A stretch of DNA of 64,000 bases from an uncultured Verrucomicrobiae bacterium (GCA_963772365.1 CAVYXA010000005.1:192001-256000), one strand, 5' to 3'. Shown: positions 13,128-51,512, counted from the stretch's first letter. Numbers and translations: made by a program. The notes: generated by a model not told the origin, from the letters alone.

Positions 13128-13197
13128 TGTAGCGGCGCTCTGTGAGCGTCGCAAAGTTCCCACCCAAGAATGGCGACGGTCACAGACCGCCGCTACA
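13128..13197. repeat. GTAG-type REP-like palindrome between convergent genes
   Basis: TGTAGCGGCG...CGCCGCTACA perfect 10-bp terminal IR, with inner complementarity (CTGTGA/TCACAG, GTCGC/GCGAC). Confidence 0.75.
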
Positions 13198-27317: not shown

Positions 27318-27394
27318 GCCACAGATGAACACGGATGAAACACGGATGTAAAGGCCTCACTGCTGATCTGTGAAAATCCGTGCTAATCCGTGGC
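27318..27394. repeat. Empty tandem-inverted-repeat hairpin (CAC[AG]GAT unit)
   Basis: GCCACAGATGAACACGGATGAAACACGGAT ... ATCTGTGAAAATCCGTGCTAATCCGTGGC fills the intergenic gap. Confidence 0.8.
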
Positions 27395-28216
27395 CTAAAC
27401 TTTTCCAGCAAAGAACGGATTGTGCGCTTTTTCCTCTCCGATCGTCGTCATAGGCCCGTGCCCTGGGCAAATGATTGTTTCATCCCGCAGGGTGAGAATT
27501 TTATCGAGATTATTTCGAACTGCGTCGGCGTAGGAAATATTTCCACCTCCCATTGAGCCGGCGAAAATTGAATCGCCGGCGATTGCGACCGGCCGCGCGA
27601 GTCCGTTCGCGACGAATGTCATTCCGCCGGGCGAATGTCCCCAGGTCGAGCGTGCTTCGATGTCGATCTTTCCCAGGTGAAAATGTTTACCTTCCTCGAT
27701 CGATTCCGCCCCGGGCACGGATTCTTTCTGAGGTGCAAACACATGAGCGCCGGTTTCTTCGCGTAACCGTGGCAGATCTGCCACGTGATCGGGATGCGCG
27801 TGAGTTAGCAGAATCATTTGCACGTGGAGCTTGTGAGCTTTCACAAAGCGGAGCATTTCCCGGCAATCTGCGCCGGTATCGAATGCGGCGGCATTCCTGG
27901 TTTCTGGGTCCCAAACGAGATATGCGTTGACGAGCATTCCATCATAATCGGTGCTGAATTGGGCAAGCCCGTCGAGCTTGTCGATCTTCTTCGGCTTCCA
28001 CCTTTCTCTGGCAAGATCGACAAGCGCATCCGGATTGAGATCGAGCGCGGAGGCGACTGCGCGAATGGTCTCGTCGTCAAATTTGCCCTCGCGGAGCTGG
28101 CGAGCTTTTTCCTGCGTGACGCCTGCTTTTTCGGCAAGCTCGCTGTCGGAAATCCGCAGGCCGCGCTGCGCTTTGCCAATCACATCGCCAAAATTATCTT
28201 CGAGTGGAACGCTCAT
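27395..28216 (-). CDS. XRE-type HTH + MBL-fold metallo-hydrolase
   Basis: N-terminal SDSELAEKAGVT helix-turn-helix; THAHPDH, GHSPG, AGD, PGHG. Confidence 0.85.
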   Translation of the reverse strand: MSVPLEDNFGDVIGKAQRGLRISDSELAEKAGVTQEKARQLREGKFDDETIRAVASALDLNPDALVDLARERWKPKKIDKLDGLAQFSTDYDGMLVNAYLVWDPETRNAAAFDTGADCREMLRFVKAHKLHVQMILLTHAHPDHVADLPRLREETGAHVFAPQKESVPGAESIEEGKHFHLGKIDIEARSTWGHSPGGMTFVANGLARPVAIAGDSIFAGSMGGGNISYADAVRNNLDKILTLRDETIICPGHGPMTTIGEEKAHNPFFAGKV

Positions 28217-34792: not shown

Positions 34793-35259
34793 ATCTTGAT
34801 CATGCTCGTGCTCATGATCATGATCGAAGAATGAAGACATATTTCGATCACGAGAAGCTGGATGTTTATCAGGAGGCAATCGCCTTCTGCCGCTGGGTGG
34901 GTGAGTTCATCGGCGGCATCAATGCTAGGCTTGCGGCAAAAGACCAGCTCGATCGCGCTTCCACAAGCATTCCGCTTAATATCGCCGAAGGAAACGGCAA
35001 GCTTTCTAATGCTGATCGAGCACGATTTCTGGAAATAGGACGCGGCTCCGCTCTGGAGTGTGCCGCTTGTCTGGATGTCGTCGTCGCGCGCAGACTCGCT
35101 CAGCCCGATGATATTGTTGCCGCGAAAGAGCAGCTCGTCCGTATTGTAAATATGTTGATGGGGCTGTTGAAACGCTTTTCAGGCCGCGCCGAATTCTTGC
35201 GTGAAGATGAAGCACTTTATCACATCGATCATGATCAGGATCATGAGCATGATCATGAT
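34793..35259. mobile_element. Inverted-arm cassette 1 (35-nt hexamer-repeat arms around a four-helix-bundle gene)
   Basis: 34793-34827 matches the reverse complement of 35225-35259 at 31/35; mobility is inferred. Confidence 0.6.
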
Positions 35260-35271
35260 GGGACGAGATGA
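34831..35271 (+). CDS. Four-helix-bundle protein (23S IVS/Avd-like family)
   Basis: FDHEKLDVY, DQLDRASTSIPLNIAEG, RFLEIGRGSALEC. Confidence 0.9.
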   Translation: MKTYFDHEKLDVYQEAIAFCRWVGEFIGGINARLAAKDQLDRASTSIPLNIAEGNGKLSNADRARFLEIGRGSALECAACLDVVVARRLAQPDDIVAAKEQLVRIVNMLMGLLKRFSGRAEFLREDEALYHIDHDQDHEHDHDGTR

Positions 35272-36479
35272 GTAAACTCACCCTTCGCGATCTCAACGTG
35301 CGCGGGAAACGCGTGCTGGTGCGGGTTGATTTCAATGTTCCCACCGATGTTCACGGAGGGAAGTTTCGAATCACCGATGACACCAGAATTCGGGAGAGCT
35401 TGCCCACGATCAATTATCTTCGCGAGCACAAGGCCAAGACGATTTTGATGTCGCATTTTGGTCGGCCTAAAGGGAAACCGGTCGATAAATTTTCGCTGCG
35501 TTCAATAGGCGATCATTTGCATTCGCTCATTCATCATCCGGTGATTTTCAGCCACGACACGATCGGGAACGTGCCGAAGACAATCATCGAGTCGATGCAG
35601 GAAGGCGATGTCGCTTTGCTGGAAAATGTGCGGTTCCAGCCGGAGGAAGAAGCCAACGATCCGAAGTTTGCCGAAGCCCTGGCCAATTTGGGGGATCTTT
35701 ATGTGAATGATGCTTTTGGTACGGCGCATCGCGCTCATGCTTCGACGGCTGGCATTACGAAGTTCGTGAAGCAATCGGCGATGGGCCTGTTGATGGAAAA
35801 GGAGCTGAAATATCTGCGGGAAGAATTGACCAAACCAAAAAAACCATTCCTCGTGATCATGGGCGGCTCGAAAGTTTCCGATAAAATAGGTGTGCTCAAA
35901 GCCCTCATGGAAAAAGCTGACACCATCCTGATCGGGGGCGCGATGGCGAACACGTTTTTCAAAGCGCAGGGGATTCCGATCGGTGAAAGCCGGGTCGAGT
36001 CTGACAAAGTCAATCTCGCGAATGAAATTGTCGATCTTGCCAAAGAACGCGAAGTGAAATTTGTGTTGCCCGTCGATGTCGTCGAAGCGGAAGAAGTTCA
36101 ATCGGGTGCGTCCATGACGAACACGAGCCGGCTTTCGCCGGAACATGGCGTCCGCGACGGCTGGCACGCGGTCGATATCGGCACGGCGACAATCGCGTTG
36201 TATCAGGAAGAGATAGCCAAGGCGGAAACGATTTTGTGGAACGGTCCGCTGGGCGTTTTTGAAATTCCCGAATTCGCGGAAGGCACCATAGCAATCGCAG
36301 AAGCTCTCGCGCAATGCGGTGCTACCACGATCATCGGTGGTGGTGATTCAGTCACAGCAGTAAAGCAAGCAGGCTTGGCCGACAAAATGACGTTTATTTC
36401 GACCGGCGGCGGTGCGTCGCTTGAATTATTGGAAGGCAAGGAACTGCCTGGAGTCGCAGCATTATCGGATAAATCTTAG
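35268..36479 (+). CDS. pgk: Phosphoglycerate kinase
   Basis: RVDFNVP, NDAFGTAHRAHAS, ISTGGGASLE. Confidence 0.98.
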   Translation: MSKLTLRDLNVRGKRVLVRVDFNVPTDVHGGKFRITDDTRIRESLPTINYLREHKAKTILMSHFGRPKGKPVDKFSLRSIGDHLHSLIHHPVIFSHDTIGNVPKTIIESMQEGDVALLENVRFQPEEEANDPKFAEALANLGDLYVNDAFGTAHRAHASTAGITKFVKQSAMGLLMEKELKYLREELTKPKKPFLVIMGGSKVSDKIGVLKALMEKADTILIGGAMANTFFKAQGIPIGESRVESDKVNLANEIVDLAKEREVKFVLPVDVVEAEEVQSGASMTNTSRLSPEHGVRDGWHAVDIGTATIALYQEEIAKAETILWNGPLGVFEIPEFAEGTIAIAEALAQCGATTIIGGGDSVTAVKQAGLADKMTFISTGGGASLELLEGKELPGVAALSDKS

Positions 36480-36486
36480 GGCTTTC

Positions 36487-37251
36487 ATGAGAAAGAAAAT
36501 CATCGCGGCGAATTGGAAAATGAACAAAACGCAGGCCGAGGCCGAGCGTTTCATCGAGAGCTTCCTGATCGAGATCGGCGACAATCGTGATGCCGAGATC
36601 GTGATCATTCCGCCGTTCACGGCGATCGCGAAGGTGAATGAGGCGTTAGGCAAAGCGCAACACATCAAGGTAGGCGCGCAAAACATGCACTGGGAACCCC
36701 ACGGCGCATTCACCGGCGAGATCTCCGCTTCCATGCTGCGCGATTTGTTCGTGCGCTATGTCGTGCTCGGCCATAGCGAACGGCGGACCTTGTTTGGCGA
36801 AACCGATAAAATCGTAAACCGGAAAGCGCGAGCCGCACACGACTCGGCATTGCGCCCGATTGTGTGTGTCGGGGAAACACTTGAGCAGCGCGACAAGGGA
36901 AATGTGGATAAGATATTGTCGATCCAGCTCCGCGGAAGTCTGGCTGGTCTCGAGGCGAAACAATTACAGGAGACTGTGATTGCGTATGAGCCGGTCTGGG
37001 CGATCGGCACCGGTCGCAACGCTACGCCGGGTGAGGCTCAAGATGCACATGCCTTTATCCGACAGGTGATAGGCGAGATGTCCGATGGCGCGACGGCCGA
37101 CAGAATTCGGGTCCAGTACGGCGGAAGTGTGAAACCCGAAAATGCGCGCGAGCTGATGTCGCAACCGGACATCGATGGCGCGCTAGTTGGAGGGGCCAGT
37201 CTCGAACCGCGCAGCTTTGCCGAGATTGTAAAGGTAGCGAGCGAGCAATAG
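36487..37251 (+). CDS. tpiA: Triosephosphate isomerase
   Basis: ANWKMN, GHSERR, AYEPVWAIGTG, YGGSVKP. Confidence 0.98.
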   Translation: MRKKIIAANWKMNKTQAEAERFIESFLIEIGDNRDAEIVIIPPFTAIAKVNEALGKAQHIKVGAQNMHWEPHGAFTGEISASMLRDLFVRYVVLGHSERRTLFGETDKIVNRKARAAHDSALRPIVCVGETLEQRDKGNVDKILSIQLRGSLAGLEAKQLQETVIAYEPVWAIGTGRNATPGEAQDAHAFIRQVIGEMSDGATADRIRVQYGGSVKPENARELMSQPDIDGALVGGASLEPRSFAEIVKVASEQ

Positions 37252-37329
37252 CGGATTCAACGGGCTGTTTTGTGGCCGACTTGCTCGTTGGTCTTGCAAT
37301 CTGTCCAATCCTATAAATCCTGTCTGGAG

Positions 37330-37793
37330 ATCTCTTCCTCTTCCTCTCCCTCTTAATCTTGATCCGAACATTAATCTCTATGCCGTTCCATCACGAAAAG
37401 CTGACCGTCTATCGACGAGCGTTAGAATTCGCGACTTGGTCGCAAATTCTCATCGACTCATTAACTAAAACGACCTCGACCCGCGATCACTTGGAGCGTG
37501 CCGGCGACAGCATTGCGTTGAATATCGCCGAGGGAAACGGCAAATTCTCACAGACAGATCGGGCCCGTTTTTTCCAGATCGCACACGGCTCGGCTCTTGA
37601 GTCCGCAGGATGCCTTGATCTTCTGGTCGCGCGAGGCTGTTGTGAAGGCGATGCAATCGTGAAAGGCAAAGCGCTGCTGGAAGAAATCGTAAAGATGCTT
37701 TTTAAGATGCTTGATCAACTGGGCTGCAGGATCGCGAAAGATGCGCCCGGCTACGGGGAGGCAGCAGACGAAGAGGAAGCGGAAGAGGAAGAT
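37330..37793. mobile_element. Inverted-arm cassette 2 (CTCTTC/GAAGAG hexamer arms around a four-helix-bundle gene)
   Basis: 37333-37347 matches the reverse complement of 37778-37792 at 14/15; mobility is inferred. Confidence 0.5.
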
Positions 37794-37796
37794 TGA
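37380..37796 (+). CDS. Four-helix-bundle protein (23S IVS/Avd-like family)
   Basis: FHHEKLTVY, DHLERAGDSIALNIAEG, RFFQIAHGSALES. Confidence 0.9.
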   Translation: MPFHHEKLTVYRRALEFATWSQILIDSLTKTTSTRDHLERAGDSIALNIAEGNGKFSQTDRARFFQIAHGSALESAGCLDLLVARGCCEGDAIVKGKALLEEIVKMLFKMLDQLGCRIAKDAPGYGEAADEEEAEEED

Positions 37797-37798
37797 TC

Positions 37799-38329
37799 AT
37801 GGCAATCACCGTTCCACGACCGAAGCTGAATTGGCGTGAGCGCCTTTATCTTCCGGCAATTTTTGCCGGCCTGGTGATCACCTTCAAACATTTCGTGAAC
37901 ATGCTGCTCGGTCGCACCAAGGTGACCATGCAATATCCGGAAGAGAAATGGGATTCGAATTTGCCCGATCACTATCGCGGTGCGCCCGCTCTGGTGAGAG
38001 ATGCCGATGGTCGGGTGCGCTGCGTCGCGTGTCAGCTTTGTGAATTCATCTGCCCACCGCGTGCGATCAAGATTGTCCCAGGCGAAATTCCATCGACCGA
38101 TCGGTTTGCCAAAGTCGAGAAACATCCCGAGGAATTCGATATCGACATGATCCGCTGCATCTTTTGCGGGATGTGCGAGGAGGTTTGTCCCGAGCAGGCG
38201 ATTTTTTTACGAAAAGATTACGCCATCACCGGTTTCACTCGCGAAGAGATGGTGTATCGAAAAGACAAGCTGATCGAGATCGGCGGAGTGATGCATGGCG
38301 TCGTTTTGAAATGGAATGAAAAGAAGTGA
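37799..38329 (+). CDS. nuoI: NADH-quinone oxidoreductase subunit I
   Basis: QYPEEK and two CxxCxxCxxxCP motifs. Confidence 0.95.
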   Translation: MAITVPRPKLNWRERLYLPAIFAGLVITFKHFVNMLLGRTKVTMQYPEEKWDSNLPDHYRGAPALVRDADGRVRCVACQLCEFICPPRAIKIVPGEIPSTDRFAKVEKHPEEFDIDMIRCIFCGMCEEVCPEQAIFLRKDYAITGFTREEMVYRKDKLIEIGGVMHGVVLKWNEKK

Positions 38330-38330
38330 G

Positions 38331-38409
38331 GCCACAGCTTGACACAGATGTTCGCCGATTTTTCAGATTTCGATCTTACATCTGTGTTTGATCTGTGTTC
38401 ATCTGTGGC
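38331..38409. repeat. Empty tandem-inverted-repeat hairpin (CACAGAT unit) between nuoI and nuoJ
   Basis: GCCACAGCTTGACACAGAT ... ATCTGTGTTTGATCTGTGTTCATCTGTGGC. Confidence 0.8.
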
Positions 38410-38416
38410 TTGAAAA

Positions 38417-38920
38417 ATGTCTGCATTTCTTTTCTGGATATTCGCGATCATGATGCTGGTGTTCGGCGCGGCCGTGATCATCGTGCGCAATCCAGTGGCC
38501 AGCGCGCTGAATCTGGTGATGTCGTTCCTCGGGCTGGCAGCGCTTTTCATTTTGCTCGATGCTTACTTCATCGGCATCATCCAGGTCCTCGTTTATGCCG
38601 GAGCGGTGATGGTGCTGTTCCTTTTCATCATCATGCTTTTGAACCTGCGGGCCGAGGAAGCGCGACGAATCAACTGGCCGACCGGTATGGGGGCGATCGC
38701 GGTCGGTCAGCTTCTGATGTTCCAGATTTTTTTTGTCGTCGCGCATTTTAAAGCCGCCGCGCAACCATTTCCGCCGTTACCAACATCGACAATCGATGAC
38801 GTCCGAAACGTCGGCGCCTTGTTGTTCGCCAATTACAATCTGCCATTTCAGATCATTGGCGTGCTGGTGCTCGTCGCCACAATTGGCGTAGTTCTTCTGA
38901 GCAAGCGCGAAACGAAATAA
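38417..38920 (+). CDS. nuoJ: NADH-quinone oxidoreductase subunit J
   Basis: RNPV.SAL, QVLVYAGAVMVLFLFIIMLL. Confidence 0.95.
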   Translation: MSAFLFWIFAIMMLVFGAAVIIVRNPVASALNLVMSFLGLAALFILLDAYFIGIIQVLVYAGAVMVLFLFIIMLLNLRAEEARRINWPTGMGAIAVGQLLMFQIFFVVAHFKAAAQPFPPLPTSTIDDVRNVGALLFANYNLPFQIIGVLVLVATIGVVLLSKRETK

Positions 38921-38933
38921 GATGAAACTTTTA

Positions 38934-39037
38934 GCCCGCGAATCACGCGAATGCGCGCGAATGAGAGAGATGCAAAAGCCCACTCTCAAGCTCAGCTCAT
39001 ATCTATTTCTTCGCGTCTATTCGCGTGATTCGCGGGC
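38934..39037. repeat. Empty tandem-inverted-repeat hairpin (CGCGAAT unit) between nuoJ and nuoK
   Basis: GCCCGCGAATCACGCGAAT ... ATTCGCGTGATTCGCGGGC, perfect 19-bp IR. Confidence 0.85.
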
Positions 39038-39049
39038 CGAAAGAATAGC

Positions 39050-39370
39050 ATGATTACACTCGGACAATACCTGATCGCCAGCGGAATTTTGTTCGCAATC
39101 GGATTTGCCGGAGTGATCCTGCGTCGAAATCTCATTGTCATTTTGATGTCGCTCGAATTGATGTTGAATGCGGCCAATCTCTCGCTGGTGGCGTTCTCCC
39201 GATTTCGTGTCGATCCAACTGGTATGCCGAATTACAACGCGCAGGTCTTCGTTTTTTTCATCATCACCGTGGCGGCGGCTGAAGTCGCCGTTGGCCTTGC
39301 CATCATCGTAGCTCTCTATCGCCTCCGCCAGACCACCGATGTAAAAGACATCAGCAGTTTGAAATTTTGA
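39050..39370 (+). CDS. nuoK: NADH-quinone oxidoreductase subunit K
   Basis: [29 protein letters not shown]. Confidence 0.95.
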
Positions 39371-39851
39371 GCCCGCGAATCACGCGAATCAAAGCGAATT
39401 ATGACGGAAATCATTCATAGGAAAGAAAGTTACGCGATTATCGGGGCCTGCTTTGAGGTCTACAATGATAAGGGCTGTGGGTTTCTCGAACCGGTTTATC
39501 AGGAATGTCTCGGCATCGAATTTGAATACCAGCGGGTACCAGCGATTCCTAAACCGTTCCTCACCCTCAATTACCGTGGACGTATTTTGACACAAACTTA
39601 CGTGCCGGATTTCGTTTGCTTCGAAAAAATTATCGTTGAACTGAAAGCGGTATCGGCCCTAATCGACGAGCACCGGGCTCAGCTCCTGAATTACCTGCAC
39701 GCCACCGGCTTCGAGCTAGGCCTATTAGTGAATTTTGGCCATTACCCGAAACTTGAACATGAACGCATTGCAAAGACTCGGTACATACCACCAAAATCCG
39801 ACTTTTCAGATGTGTCTTTGTAAATTCGCGTTAATTCGCGTGATTCGCGGG
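39371..39851. mobile_element. Inverted-arm cassette 3 (CGCGAAT arms around the GxxExxY gene)
   Basis: 39372-39400 matches the reverse complement of 39823-39851 at 27/29; arms abut the ATG and the stop. Confidence 0.7.
39401..39823 (+). CDS. GxxExxY protein (PD-(D/E)XK nuclease-like fold)
   Basis: GFLEPVY, PDF...IIVELKA, AQLLNYL..TG...GLLVNFG. Confidence 0.92.
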   Translation: MTEIIHRKESYAIIGACFEVYNDKGCGFLEPVYQECLGIEFEYQRVPAIPKPFLTLNYRGRILTQTYVPDFVCFEKIIVELKAVSALIDEHRAQLLNYLHATGFELGLLVNFGHYPKLEHERIAKTRYIPPKSDFSDVSL

Positions 39852-44570: not shown

Positions 44571-44573
44571 AGA

Positions 44574-44640
44574 GTTAAAAAGTTAAAAGGTTACAACGTT
44601 ACAAAGGAGATTTCCCTTTTTAGCTTTGTAGCCTTTTAAC
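44574..44640. repeat. Empty octamer tandem-inverted-repeat hairpin after nuoN (may also act as terminator)
   Basis: GTTAAAAA-GTTAAAAG-GTTACAAC-GTTACAAA ... CTTTTTAG-CTTTGTAG-CCTTTTAAC. Confidence 0.7.
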
Positions 44641-51408: not shown

Positions 51409-51512
51409 TTTAGCGATTTTAGCGATCTGAAGATTTAGAGATTCGCTCTTGATCTCGCCTTAAATCGCTAAACCATTAAATCGCCTGATCTTTAAATCAC
51501 CAAATCGCTAAA
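51409..51512. repeat. Empty octamer tandem-inverted-repeat hairpin before fabF
   Basis: TTTAGCGATTTTAGCGAT..GATTTAGAGATT versus repeated AAATCGCT/AAATCACC units ending AAATCGCTAAA. Confidence 0.7.

Follow-up and report, generated by a model that had tools for sequence, protein, structure and literature searches.

Three Small Genes Between Housekeeping Genes

The window, by which is meant the whole stretch of 64,000 nucleotides that was analysed, contains three small genes enclosed by inverted arms (Table 1). Their host is a soil Verrucomicrobium, and they are wedged between housekeeping genes; the neighbours gap, pgk, tpiA, nuoI, nuoJ, nuoK and nuoL were all confirmed. Cassettes 1 and 2 each carry a four-helix-bundle (4HB) gene, the two proteins being 44% identical, while cassette 3 carries a GxxExxY gene. 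The arms are built from 6-nt units in cassette 1 (35 nt, 89% complementary) and cassette 2 (27 nt, 85% complementary), and from 9-10-nt units in cassette 3 (29 nt, 93% complementary over 39372-39400 and 39823-39851). Positions and units are as in the original prediction, which had the arms bracketing each gene; however, in cassettes 1 and 2 the 3' arm is part of the reading frame, encoding the tails HDHDQDHEHDHD and DEEEAEEEED, respectively. The same prediction took all three sites to be conserved operon junctions, which is not the case for tpiA-nuoI, as tpiA and nuoI are apart in every relative where both were found. No orthologue of 4HB gene 2 was seen beside either of them in the relatives. 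The idea that the paired arms bring the host stop and start codons together fits cassettes 1 and 3 (about 10-14 nt), but not cassette 2, where the 5' arm starts too far beyond the tpiA stop codon.

Hairpins without a gene were found at all the places where they had been predicted. The one at nuoJ-nuoK has the same unit type as cassette 3, and arms like those of the nuoI-nuoJ hairpin occur elsewhere in the genome of the window as well as in related genomes. The GxxExxY cassette that shares its units with the hairpin at 27318 is situated 17 kb upstream of the window. Ordinary REP-like hairpins, which are not tandem-built, are also present in this genome, one of them within the window at 13128-13197.

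Table 1. Cassettes and gene-less hairpins in the window.
Feature	Position	Strand	Remarks
Cassette 1, 5' arm	34793..34827	+	ATCATG/CTCGTG hexamers; begins 2 nt 3' of gap stop codon
Cassette 1, four-helix-bundle gene 1	34831..35271	+	146 aa, PF05635/TIGR02436; stop overlaps pgk start (ATGA)
Cassette 1, 3' arm	35225..35259	+	Within ORF; codes for IDHDQDHEHDHD tail
Cassette 2, 5' arm	37333..37359	+	CTCTTC hexamers; tpiA stop 80 nt upstream
Cassette 2, four-helix-bundle gene 2	37380..37796	+	138 aa, PF05635/TIGR02436
Cassette 2, 3' arm	37766..37792	+	Within ORF (DEEEAEEEED tail); nuoI ATG 6 nt beyond end
Gene-less hairpin, nuoI-nuoJ	38330..38410	+	CACAGATG units, GxxExxY-type core; predicted fold -30.1 kcal/mol
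Gene-less hairpin, nuoJ-nuoK	38928..39043	+	Arms 38928-38961 / 39010-39043, 34 nt, 85%; CGCGAAT units
Cassette 3, 5' arm	39366..39400	+	Three CGCGAAT-type units at 9-10 nt; overlaps nuoK stop codon
Cassette 3, GxxExxY gene	39401..39823	+	140 aa, PF13366/TIGR04256, predicted PD-(D/E)XK fold
Cassette 3, 3' arm	39823..39851	+	Begins at passenger stop codon; nuoL ATG 8 nt beyond end
Gene-less hairpin	27318..27398	+	CACGGATGAA units, as in the arms of the GxxExxY cassette at genome C5:174724-175190
Gene-less tandem-unit hairpin	44573..44640	+	GTTAAAAA/GTTACAAA, 8 nt; hairpin at 44582-44640; directly 3' of nuoN
Gene-less tandem-unit hairpin	51409..51512	+	TTTAGCGAT, 9 nt; hairpin at 51418-51512

The Passenger Proteins

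Profile searches place 4HB genes 1 and 2 in PF05635 (78.3 and 69.6 bits, cut-off 33.8) and TIGR02436 (72.9 and 64 bits, cut-off 24). A profile made from 11 PF05635 paralogues matches the PDB entries 2rld (E 9e-31) and 2gsc (E 2e-28). The GxxExxY gene of the window matches PF13366 with 129 bits (cut-off 22). No transposase family was found among the passengers in the profile search, all of which belong to PF05635 or PF13366, and the cassettes are transposase-free, as originally proposed.

In GxxExxY the residues G27, E30, Y33, D70, E80, and K82 are invariant among 69 sequences, and N111 is likewise listed as an invariant residue of the window protein. Its predicted structure (pLDDT 90.4) displays a restriction-endonuclease-like fold, with Cas4 SSO0001 as the best match (Z 8.4, rmsd 5.6, 107 residues aligned) and a Z of 6.4 against Hjc. 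The modelled fold is that of a generic PD-(D/E)XK core and therefore gives no clue to the substrate. To our knowledge the 4HB protein has no catalytic activity, yet its gene is packaged in the same way as the nuclease-fold gene. The dN/dS values, 0.05-0.12 where computable, show at the codon level that both passenger proteins are held by purifying selection; for 4HB gene 1, orthologues in seven relatives were available.

Arms Follow the Gene Family

Members of the two families number 18 in the genome of the window (12 PF05635 and six PF13366). Thirteen of these have a flank inverted-repeat score of at least 34, a value reached by none of 400 random positions (random maximum 31). The association holds in the other direction as well, since all ten inverted tandem-array pairs with spacers of 350-550 nt enclose a family gene (six 4HB, four GxxExxY). 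In a set of 77 GxxExxY loci drawn from many phyla, 53 score at least 34, as do none of 71 outer-flank controls. Of the 27 4HB loci sampled throughout the phylum, 22 reach at least 30, compared to one of 24 controls. Chance pairing of arms and genes is excluded, and the enrichment of inverted arms around both families that had been predicted is borne out.

It had further been suggested that unit length tracks the protein, and this is what the larger samples indicate. In the many-phyla set the GxxExxY arms have a period of 9 nt (28 loci) or 10 nt (nine loci). Among 17 clearly periodic 4HB arms from the phylum sample, 12 have a period of 7 nt, four of 8 nt, and one of 6 nt, and 7-nt units are found at eight other 4HB genes of the window's genome. 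Judging from these loci, the default 4HB unit is 7 nt and sometimes 8, the 6-nt unit being an in-frame special case where the 3' arm is translated. The GxxExxY arms in addition have a polar CRCDRAW core in common across phyla. A pair of such motifs at 8-11 nt was found sense-upstream at 44 of 77 and antisense-downstream at 49 of 77 GxxExxY loci (controls 2/71 and 1/71), and at none of 43 4HB loci. The motif was derived from six cassettes of the window's genome and one letter was widened after a relative had been viewed, so it was not fully pre-registered. Since unit length, and for GxxExxY also the core, go with the gene family whatever the phylum or insertion site, the sequence comparison shows that the arms belong to the element and not to the insertion site.

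Turnover at the Junctions

Inheritance at these junctions is not invariant, and the comparison across relatives that the original prediction called for revealed sites that are filled, truncated, or empty, as well as replaced and bare ones. At gap-pgk, seven of 19 relatives are filled, one has a decayed pseudogene, two have other tandem hairpins, four REP-like hairpins, two other hairpins, and three are bare; the 4HB gene is absent from the sister genome G001. At nuoK-nuoL the gene is present in three of 13 relatives, while nuoI-nuoJ has some hairpin, without a gene, in 12 of 14. The nuoJ-nuoK junction forms a series, in which the GxxExxY gene is truncated in G011, only 13 codons of it are left in G009, and the hairpin in the window is empty. 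Because of these remnants, and because gene-less copies are dispersed, the empty hairpins are regarded as derivatives, one of the two roles originally proposed for them. The comparison of genomes shows that cassettes are gained, lost, and replaced, and that internal deletions turn them into gene-less hairpins.

The proposed colonisation of several junctions is also seen: the hexamer-armed 4HB clade is found at nuoF-nuoG and at a peptidase-hydrolase (M19-MBL) junction as well, and its hexamer arms persist at gap-pgk, nuoF-nuoG, and M19-MBL. The cassettes nearly always point the same way as the host operon; of 60 GxxExxY cassettes, 51 share the direction of both neighbours and two are antiparallel. 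The 4HB proteins at gap-pgk are 70-81% identical between orthologues across genera. From such comparisons this cassette looks mostly vertically inherited, which means that it can move only rarely. The genomes compared did not reveal a transposition event, and no target-site duplication or direct repeat outside the arms was visible when the three window cassettes were read by eye.

Comparison with Known Elements

The closest parallel is found in the intervening sequences (IVS) of 23S rRNA genes in Coxiella burnetii and Leptospira, which are about 430 nt long and contain one PF05635/S23p ORF and no transposase (PMC4990558). Their ends are inverted repeats that pair into a stem of about 28 bp, and tandem heptamers of variable copy number are found just 5' of the ATG; the Coxiella IVS is given as 428-444 nt with a 28-bp stem that RNase III cuts in the middle (PMC4990558). 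The window cassettes share this design of an insert of about 0.4 kb with long-stem terminal inverted repeats and short tandem repeats before the ORF. Excision by RNase III has been demonstrated for the 23S IVS (PMC4990558) and would by analogy also take place here. According to the same source, the IVS are inserted in helix 45 of 23S rRNA and the Coxiella passenger is decaying (PMC4990558), whereas the present cassettes have mRNA operons as hosts and their passengers are under purifying selection. The 23S gene of the window's genome, at 2874 nt against 2925 model positions, has no insert, and all 12 PF05635 genes are located outside it. Unlike the 23S IVS, the present cassettes also include a second, unrelated passenger, GxxExxY, with the same design and 9-10-nt units, and gene-less copies are dispersed.

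A REPtron consists of a single RAYT gene flanked by inverted hairpin-forming repeats, with gene-less hairpins of the same family dispersed between genes. The cassettes are similar in having one gene between inverted arm copies and dispersed gene-less hairpins. They differ in that each cassette has very nearly its own arms, composed of 6-10-nt units in tandem, and in that the gene-less hairpins are few (0-6 per cassette, although about 27 in G001). A REPtron proper was rejected, as the enclosed genes are PF05635 or PF13366 and not a Y1 (IS200-like) transposase; weak PF01797 matches were found only in three separate REP-flanked ORFs (L001, L004, and L007).

Eukaryotic foldback elements have inverted arms made of short tandem repeats, and MITEs are short gene-less inverted-repeat elements derived from a coding parent. 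The gene-less copies and tandem-built arms resemble both, but no target-site duplication was seen at the three window cassettes, no transposase-coding parent is known, and the arms are not alike from one cassette to the next. Free-standing homing endonuclease genes lie between conserved phage genes and are patchy among relatives, much like the small nuclease-fold GxxExxY gene that stands alone between highly conserved genes. Homing genes, however, are not known to be enclosed by arms of inverted tandem repeats. For GxxExxY neither a cleavage activity nor a target is known, and the 4HB passenger has no nuclease fold.

Short tandem arrays between co-oriented ORFs are also known from Xanthomonas and Nostoc, where GGGAATC / GGGGAYT heptamers are transcribed (Rehm et al., 2015, PMC4692102). 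Xanthomonas has 70-75 convergent inverted heptamer pairs per genome (PMC4692102). There, however, the heptamers are read as G-quadruplex motifs, and the searched part of the text mentions neither an enclosed gene nor S23p, with no occurrence of 'S23' or 'intervening' (PMC4692102).

Proposed Mode of Spread

We consider it probable, though well short of certain, that the three genes belong to a widespread class of selfish IVS-type cassettes (arm, ORF, complementary arm) that are situated between co-directional protein genes and are mobile and transposase-free. Inverted short-repeat packaging of small genes was previously known only from inserts in ribosomal RNA genes. The cassette would have no promoter of its own and would be expressed from the operon transcript. 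In this transcript a stem of 27-35 bp would loop the passenger out and might be an RNase III substrate, by analogy with the rRNA version, so that insertion between essential genes would be tolerable. In the DNA the arms would be the ends of the element, each with about three putative protein-binding units and able to extrude a hairpin or cruciform. Either the passenger protein, which in the case of GxxExxY has an intact predicted PD-(D/E)XK nuclease site, or a host function may act on these ends and thereby move both full and gene-less copies. Complementarity would be maintained by concerted change of both arms. Seven of ten differing arm columns are compensated between the G000 and G001 orthologues; among the gap-pgk arms, however, a genome's own arms are the best partners in only two of eight rows and three of eight columns, with an own mean of 44.5 and a cross mean of 34.1.

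At the RNA level, the arms pair in the predicted MFE and centroid folds of all three cassettes, the fold of cassette 2 being no better than that of shuffles (z -0.9), and the genome encodes RNase III. There is no excess of G.U over A.C among the stem mismatches in the sense strand (G.U:A.C 32:47, 29:22, and 12:11), and hence no clear sign of selection for pairing in the sense RNA. Between 33700 and 41700, 12 terminator-like sites (G+C-rich hairpin plus T run) were found against 9.7 expected; none of the 12 coincides with an arm or empty hairpin, and no promoter-like site coincides with an arm.

Alternative Explanations

It is possible, but unlikely, that the system is domesticated in the manner proposed for RAYT/REP, with a stationary gene-carrying master whose protein spreads gene-less hairpins only and a gene that does not transpose. 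This would account for G001, where a GGAGTRNT unit is found at about 28 loci, one enclosing a PF05635 gene and about 27 being gene-less, and for the similar pattern in G010. Nine of 13 cassettes in the window's genome likewise have one to six gene-less copies of their own arms (35 loci in total). True REP families of the same genome hold one long-loop member that encloses a weak PF01797 Y1 transposase-like ORF, so the REPtron layout does exist in this genome. However, the gene-carrying hexamer clade is present at four different junctions, and the tree of the GxxExxY proteins at nuoK-nuoL is at odds with the host, the G000 protein being 76% identical to that of G011 and 69% to that of G001, the sister of G000. 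PF13366 is moreover listed as subject to multiple transfers (PMC3424549).

Marginally less probable is that the hairpins came first, either by slippage and palindrome perfection or as an independent MITE-like class, and that genes inserted later, the empty hairpins being targets and not derivatives. Gene-less pairs are indeed more numerous than filled ones (in the window's genome, 14 inverted tandem pairs have short loops and 10 have gene-sized spacers), they occupy nuoI-nuoJ in most relatives as given above, and extra empty hairpins adjoin the cassette in G005, G018, and G024. The arm period and core are nevertheless specific for the gene family across phyla and sites, which would not be expected of genes landing in pre-existing hairpins. 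The truncated genes within the arms at nuoJ-nuoK (G011 and G009) and a decayed 4HB gene between arms in G024 further indicate that the direction is from filled to empty.

Least likely, by a small margin, are host-owned RNA processing modules, in which the stems would be RNase III sites that set the stability or translation of operon segments, the small proteins domesticated accessory factors, and all differences losses, nothing being mobile: the strong sense orientation (51/60), stems adjoining host stop and start codons, translational coupling of pgk to the 4HB ORF (distances mostly -3 to +4 among the metagenome loci listed), retention of the gap-pgk orthologue in at least eight genera under purifying selection, and the near-constant hairpin at nuoI-nuoJ (12/14) all agree with this, but the stems lack a G.U excess, gap-pgk measures 2-8 nt in the three bare relatives, G001 has its many gene-less copies of one arm type, one clade occupies four junction types, and the sisters G000 and G001 have unrelated arm types at both gap-pgk and nuoI-nuoJ.

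Armed small genes at operon junctions

The observation that small genes with complementary tandem-unit arms sit at operon junctions is confirmed, and it generalises. The genome of the host (G000) is 3.35 Mb in six contigs (prefix C), and the window corresponds to C5:192001-256000. The original prediction described three co-oriented small genes at junctions, each with such arms, and empty hairpins of like design at nuoI/nuoJ, nuoJ/nuoK, 27318, 44574 and 51409. Coordinates and profile matches agree with this, and all of the hairpins were located in the window. Two of the genes belong to the four-helix-bundle family (4HB) and the third to the GxxExxY family; the closest named relatives of the latter gene are found in Chthoniobacterales (Verrucomicrobiota) MAGs. 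The 3' arms of both 4HB cassettes are part of the reading frame and are translated into a HDHDQDHEHDHD or a DEEEAEEEED tail, and the stop codon of the first 4HB gene overlaps the start codon of pgk (ATGA). In cassette 3 the ORF takes up the whole loop, leaving no gap to either arm.

Features of the window and of other parts of the host genome. Positions without a contig name are those of the window.
Feature	Position	Context	Description
Cassette 1 gene	34831-35271	between gap and pgk, co-oriented with neighbours	4HB, PF05635/TIGR02436
Cassette 1 arms	34793-34827 / 35225-35259		35 nt, 89% complementary, short tandem units
Cassette 2 gene	37380-37796	between tpiA and nuoI, co-oriented with neighbours	4HB, PF05635/TIGR02436
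Cassette 2 arms	37333-37359 / 37766-37792		27 nt, 85% complementary, short tandem units
Cassette 3 gene	39401-39823	between nuoK and nuoL, co-oriented with neighbours	GxxExxY, PF13366/TIGR04256
Cassette 3 arms	39372-39400 / 39823-39851		29 nt, 93% complementary, short tandem units
Gene-less hairpin	38330-38410	nuoI/nuoJ	cassette-like build
Gene-less hairpin	38928-39043	nuoJ/nuoK	cassette-like build
Further gene-less hairpins	27318, 44573, 51409		
4HB cassette	C1:1307294-1307795		GTGACGA heptamers
GxxExxY cassette	C1:1309800-1310261		
Frameshifted GxxExxY gene	C1:1337160-1337502	1.7 kb upstream of nuoH	CAGGAAAG arms
DUF520 gene (L005)	C1:1707526-1708302		between inverted REP-like elements
DUF2237 gene (L012)	C3:658094-658735		between inverted REP-like elements
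REP-like long-loop locus L001	C1:514891-515448		palindrome TGTAGCGGCGGTC...
REP-like long-loop locus L004	C1:1241691-1242249		palindrome TTGTAGGGCAAGCGC...
REP-like long-loop locus L007	C3:129787-130295		palindrome CTGTAGGGGAAGCTG...
Gene-less REP-like copy	13128-13197		
nuoI-N after tpiA	36412-37799		
nuoH	C1:1339316-1340353		followed by REP-like hairpin

Association of the arms with two gene families

The genome encodes 12 PF05635 genes and six PF13366 genes, and one of the six has a frameshift. Each gene was scored for local complementarity of its upstream and downstream 230-nt flanks, with 400 random positions as control. A score of at least 34 was reached by 13 of the 18 family genes and by none of the random positions (maximum 31), and a score of at least 26 by 17 of 18 against 2.75%. 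In the reverse approach, TRF arrays with a period of 6-12 formed 29 inverted pairs within 900 nt. The spacers of these pairs are bimodal, 14 being shorter than 100 nt and 10 falling at 350-550 nt, and all 10 of the latter pairs enclose a family gene (six 4HB, four GxxExxY). Enrichment is thus seen in both directions of search. The ordinary genes DUF520 and DUF2237 are also flanked by inverted elements, so long-range inverted repeats per se are unspecific to the two families; the specificity is confined to tandem-built inverted repeats.

C1 has a second place of this kind: a run of co-oriented genes that, like that of the window, includes both a 4HB and a GxxExxY cassette, here at a distance of 2.4 kb. 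A GxxExxY gene broken into two frames is found on the same contig, and its arm type occurs in six gene-less copies elsewhere in the genome.

Unit length and core motif

In G000, units of 7 nt occur at all eight 4HB genes whose 3' arm lies past the stop codon, units of 6 nt at the two window 4HB genes, where this arm is translated, and units of 8-11 nt at GxxExxY genes. A sample of 80 GxxExxY loci from many phyla (Verrucomicrobiota, Acidobacteriota, Planctomycetota, Chloroflexota, Bacteroidota, Nitrospirota and others) contained 77 with a scorable flank; 53 of these scored at least 34, compared to 0 of 71 controls taken from the outer flanks of these loci. The period was 9 in 28 and 10 in nine of the 37 clearly periodic loci. 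The units have a common polar core, C-R-C-D-R-A-W (e.g., CACGAAT, CGCGAAT, CGCAGAT). Since this core was derived from the six cassettes of G000, and widened at one position after a relative had been viewed, the following test is close to but not fully independent: at least two cores 8-11 nt apart were found on the sense strand upstream of 44 and on the antisense strand downstream of 49 of the 77 loci, in the opposite orientation at 11 and 12, in outer flanks at 2/71 (upstream) and 1/71 (downstream), and at none of 43 4HB loci.

PF05635 is present in 39 of the 61 genomes of a phylum sample. With one best locus per genome, 27 were scorable, and 22 of them scored at least 30 versus 1 of 24 controls; the periods were 7 (12 loci), 8 (four) and 6 (one). 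Unit length therefore goes with protein family, being 7 (8, 6) nt for 4HB and 9-10 nt for GxxExxY. The lengths originally proposed hold for the window 4HB genes (6 nt) and for GxxExxY (9-10 nt), but 6 nt is not the general 4HB unit, 7 being commonest. The hexamer-armed clade of window gene 1 is common in soil metagenomes. Among 80 such loci 69 were scorable and 57 scored at least 30, and since the period is 6 or 12 in 56 of these and the 3' arm coding in 45, the hexamer is probably best read as an in-frame version of the arm. By eye, the 5' arms of heptamer-type 4HB loci in the phylum sample (L244-L273) have a sense strand rich in purines or in G. In the hexamer clade with translated arms the polarity is reversed, with a pyrimidine-rich upstream arm and a purine-rich downstream coding arm.

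The junctions in related genomes

The gap/pgk junction was compared in 19 relatives of the host's family; no conclusion depends on any of the unpublished genomes G003, G008 and G014 alone.

States of the gap/pgk junction in 19 relatives.
State	Genomes
Orthologous 4HB cassette (7/19)	G022, G009, G010, G017, G005, G004, G018
Decayed 4HB pseudogene and extra empty hairpins	G024
Other empty hairpin, 8-nt units	G001, G023
REP-like hairpins	G015, G014 (unpublished), G016, G002
Other hairpins	G012, G006
Bare spacer, 2-8 nt	G007, G011, G013

In a tree of gap and pgk, G001 is the sister of G000 (SH-aLRT 95) and G010 comes next (97). Given this tree, G001 has lost or replaced the gap/pgk cassette, since it is kept in both G000 and G010. 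The 5' arms of the GGAGTRNT hairpin at this junction are nearly identical in G001 (L024) and G023 (L034), which are not sisters on the tree, and this hints at allelic replacement via the conserved flanks.

At nuoK/nuoL, three of 13 relatives (G001, G009, G011) carry the GxxExxY cassette, eight have 6-9 nt and two have REP-like hairpins. In 11 of the 14 relatives 0-4 nt separate nuoJ from nuoK. G011 has a truncated GxxExxY gene there (residues 1-73) with CACGAAA arms on both sides, and G009 a 171-nt element with about 13 codons left; together with the hairpin of the window these form a decay series, from filled to empty. Of 14 relatives, 12 have some tandem-unit hairpin at nuoI/nuoJ, and at least six unit types, unrelated to one another, occur among them. 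Aligned across relatives, gap/pgk, nuoJ/nuoK and nuoK/nuoL are thus found in filled, truncated, empty, replaced and bare states. The two distributions conflict, GxxExxY occurring without 4HB in G001 and G011 and 4HB without GxxExxY in G010, G004 and G005, so several events are needed under any species tree. Hexamer-armed relatives of gene 1 are also found, co-oriented, at nuoF/nuoG (flanking genes identified on both sides in L222 and L227, on one side in L223 and L226) and between genes for an M19 peptidase and a metallo-beta-lactamase-fold protein (identified on both sides in L224, L235, L236 and L241, and on the downstream side alone in L229 and L231). For gene 2, the neighbourhoods of nuoI and tpiA in the relatives yielded no orthologue.

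The GxxExxY protein of the window is 76% identical to that of G011 (L037) and 69% to that of the sister G001 (L064), while for the flanking nuoK the order is reversed (84% and 92%); the arms agree with the protein. Either the cassette has been exchanged, or it has changed faster in G001. In the 72%-complete G009 (five contigs), pgk, gap, 4HB and GxxExxY alike have frame breaks (L018, L038, L063). These are probably indel errors of the assembly, and decay was set aside as their explanation.

Dispersed copies

In G001 the GGAGTRNT unit has 66 matches, versus 0 for a reversed-pattern control, at about 28 loci. In one pair, spaced by 469 nt, a PF05635 gene (E 6.5e-19) lies between the two members. 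The unit matches 31 times in G010, where the orthologous gene-carrying copy is present as well. Nine of the 13 strongly armed cassettes of G000 have one to six further loci with the same arms, 35 in all; the window 4HB cassettes have 0 and 1. Gene, private arms and gene-less hairpins are one evolving unit colonising core-operon junctions. The comparative evidence (decay series, dispersed copies and turnover) supports the earlier suggestion that the cassettes would be transposase-free selfish elements, with the empty hairpins as non-autonomous derivatives.

The encoded proteins

Both the 4HB and the GxxExxY proteins are functional. Orthologous 4HB genes have dN 0.13-0.24 and saturated dS, with dN/dS 0.05-0.12 in the six pairs, out of 21, that allowed an estimate of dS. 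G27, E30, Y33, D70, E80, K82 and N111 are invariant in 69 GxxExxY sequences, and the AlphaFold model (pLDDT 90.4) displays a minimal restriction-endonuclease-like core. Its best fold neighbour is Cas4 SSO0001 (Foldseek E 1.5e-4, TM 0.55; VIA Z 8.4, rmsd 5.6, 107 residues), and restriction-enzyme domains are also found. A junction resolvase was considered, but the profile search gave only insignificant matches to T7 endonuclease I (E 0.07-0.66), and this specific assignment was dropped since Cas4, restriction-enzyme and lambda-exonuclease cores rank at or above Hjc (Z 6.4).

Pairing of the arms as RNA or DNA

Among 60 GxxExxY loci with readable flanks, 51 are co-oriented with both neighbours and two are antiparallel to both. 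A role of the arms as terminators or promoters is unsupported, as no predicted site coincided with them in a scan with E. coli-type consensus only. In the predicted folds of all three cassette RNAs the arms close over about 400 nt, both in the MFE and the centroid structure (z -3.4, -0.9 and -2.9), and an RNase III gene is present in G000. These observations, like the IVS-type design described below, speak in favour of a function as RNA. Stem mismatches are mostly of transversion type. Sense-strand G.U is not commoner than A.C among them (32:47 in 52 GxxExxY, 29:22 in 42 4HB and 12:11 in the 13 G000 cassettes), and pairing therefore looks symmetrically maintained, which would fit DNA hairpins or arm-to-arm copying (by template switching in quasi-palindromes) at least as well as selection on RNA.

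The arms change in concert. Between the orthologous GxxExxY cassettes of G000 and G001, 10 of 28 arm columns differ, and seven of these are double, pair-preserving changes. Compensation is informative only for such clean pairs; in an ungapped comparison of seven CGCGAAT-type elements, two of them out of register because of indels, 58 of 240 differing columns were compensated. For eight gap/pgk orthologues the own partner was the best complement in two of eight rows, a weak test since all arms are of one hexamer family. Excision from mRNA is plausible by homology, with one sequence test not in its favour.

Known systems and a possible mechanism

According to PMC4990558, the Coxiella 23S rRNA intervening sequence (IVS) is 428-444 nt, contains the S23p ORF and has a 28-bp stem cut in the middle by RNase III, with a variable number of tandem GACAGAT heptamers before the ATG. 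Its design equals that of the cassettes. Inverted heptamer pairs have been reported from Xanthomonas, with no gene link in the text searched (PMC4692102), and the entry for PF13366 in PMC3424549 gives its function as unknown and notes multiple transfers. No description of PF05635 or PF13366 genes within inverted tandem arms outside rRNA was found in the full-text literature searched, which covers few of the subscription journals; only the rRNA form is described there.

It is conceivable, though we consider it doubtful, that the cassettes represent an unrecognised, phylum-spanning class of transposase-free mobile elements with protein-bound arm arrays as ends, a self-mobilising passenger and excision by RNase III. 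Each end would consist of about three units to which the protein binds, with a period of 9-10 nt and the CRCDRAW core in the case of the GxxExxY nuclease, and of 7 nt in that of the 4HB protein, a pentamer. This protein would recognise its own arms when they form a hairpin or cruciform, and would mobilise itself and gene-less derivatives. RNase III would cut the same stem from host transcripts, a bacterial mRNA counterpart of splicing that would make insertion into essential operons harmless, and the rRNA IVS would merely be copies that landed in rRNA.

The data tie together three subjects: the large, functionally uncharacterised families PF05635 and PF13366, the hitherto unexplained short heptamer-type repeats of bacterial intergenic DNA, and the origin of the rRNA IVS, a question that dates from 1990. 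For each protein they define a DNA or RNA motif; they also provide an RNase III site, as predicted, and sites that in nature range from filled through truncated to empty. Culturable carriers of such genes include Chthoniobacter, Bacteroides thetaiotaomicron and Xanthomonas campestris. For annotation, these hairpins would act neither as terminators nor as regulatory switches for the genes beside them. Some 4HB proteins have acidic or His-rich tails, and these are translated repeat arms.

The nuo split and REP-like families

The tpiA/nuoI junction had been taken as a conserved operon junction, which did not hold; the adjacency is lineage-specific among the relatives compared, the two genes lying apart where found. 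The nuo operon is split in G000 only, with nuoI-N after tpiA and nuoH on C1, where a REP-like hairpin and then a quinolinate-synthase-like ORF follow it. A link between cassette 2 and the break was considered, but this hairpin is an ordinary REP-like one, and as there is no CTCTTC arm remnant next to nuoH, recombination between cassette copies is unsupported.

G000 also has families of ordinary REP-like hairpins that are not built in tandem, with 4-20 copies per family. In three of these families a single long-loop member encloses a weak Y1-transposase-like ORF (PF01797, E 1e-4 to 2.5e-4, just below the Pfam cut-off). A layout of the REP/RAYT kind thus exists in G000 next to the tandem-armed cassettes and is distinct from them. 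The three long-loop loci resemble REPtron/RAYT units, and one gene-less copy is found in the window.
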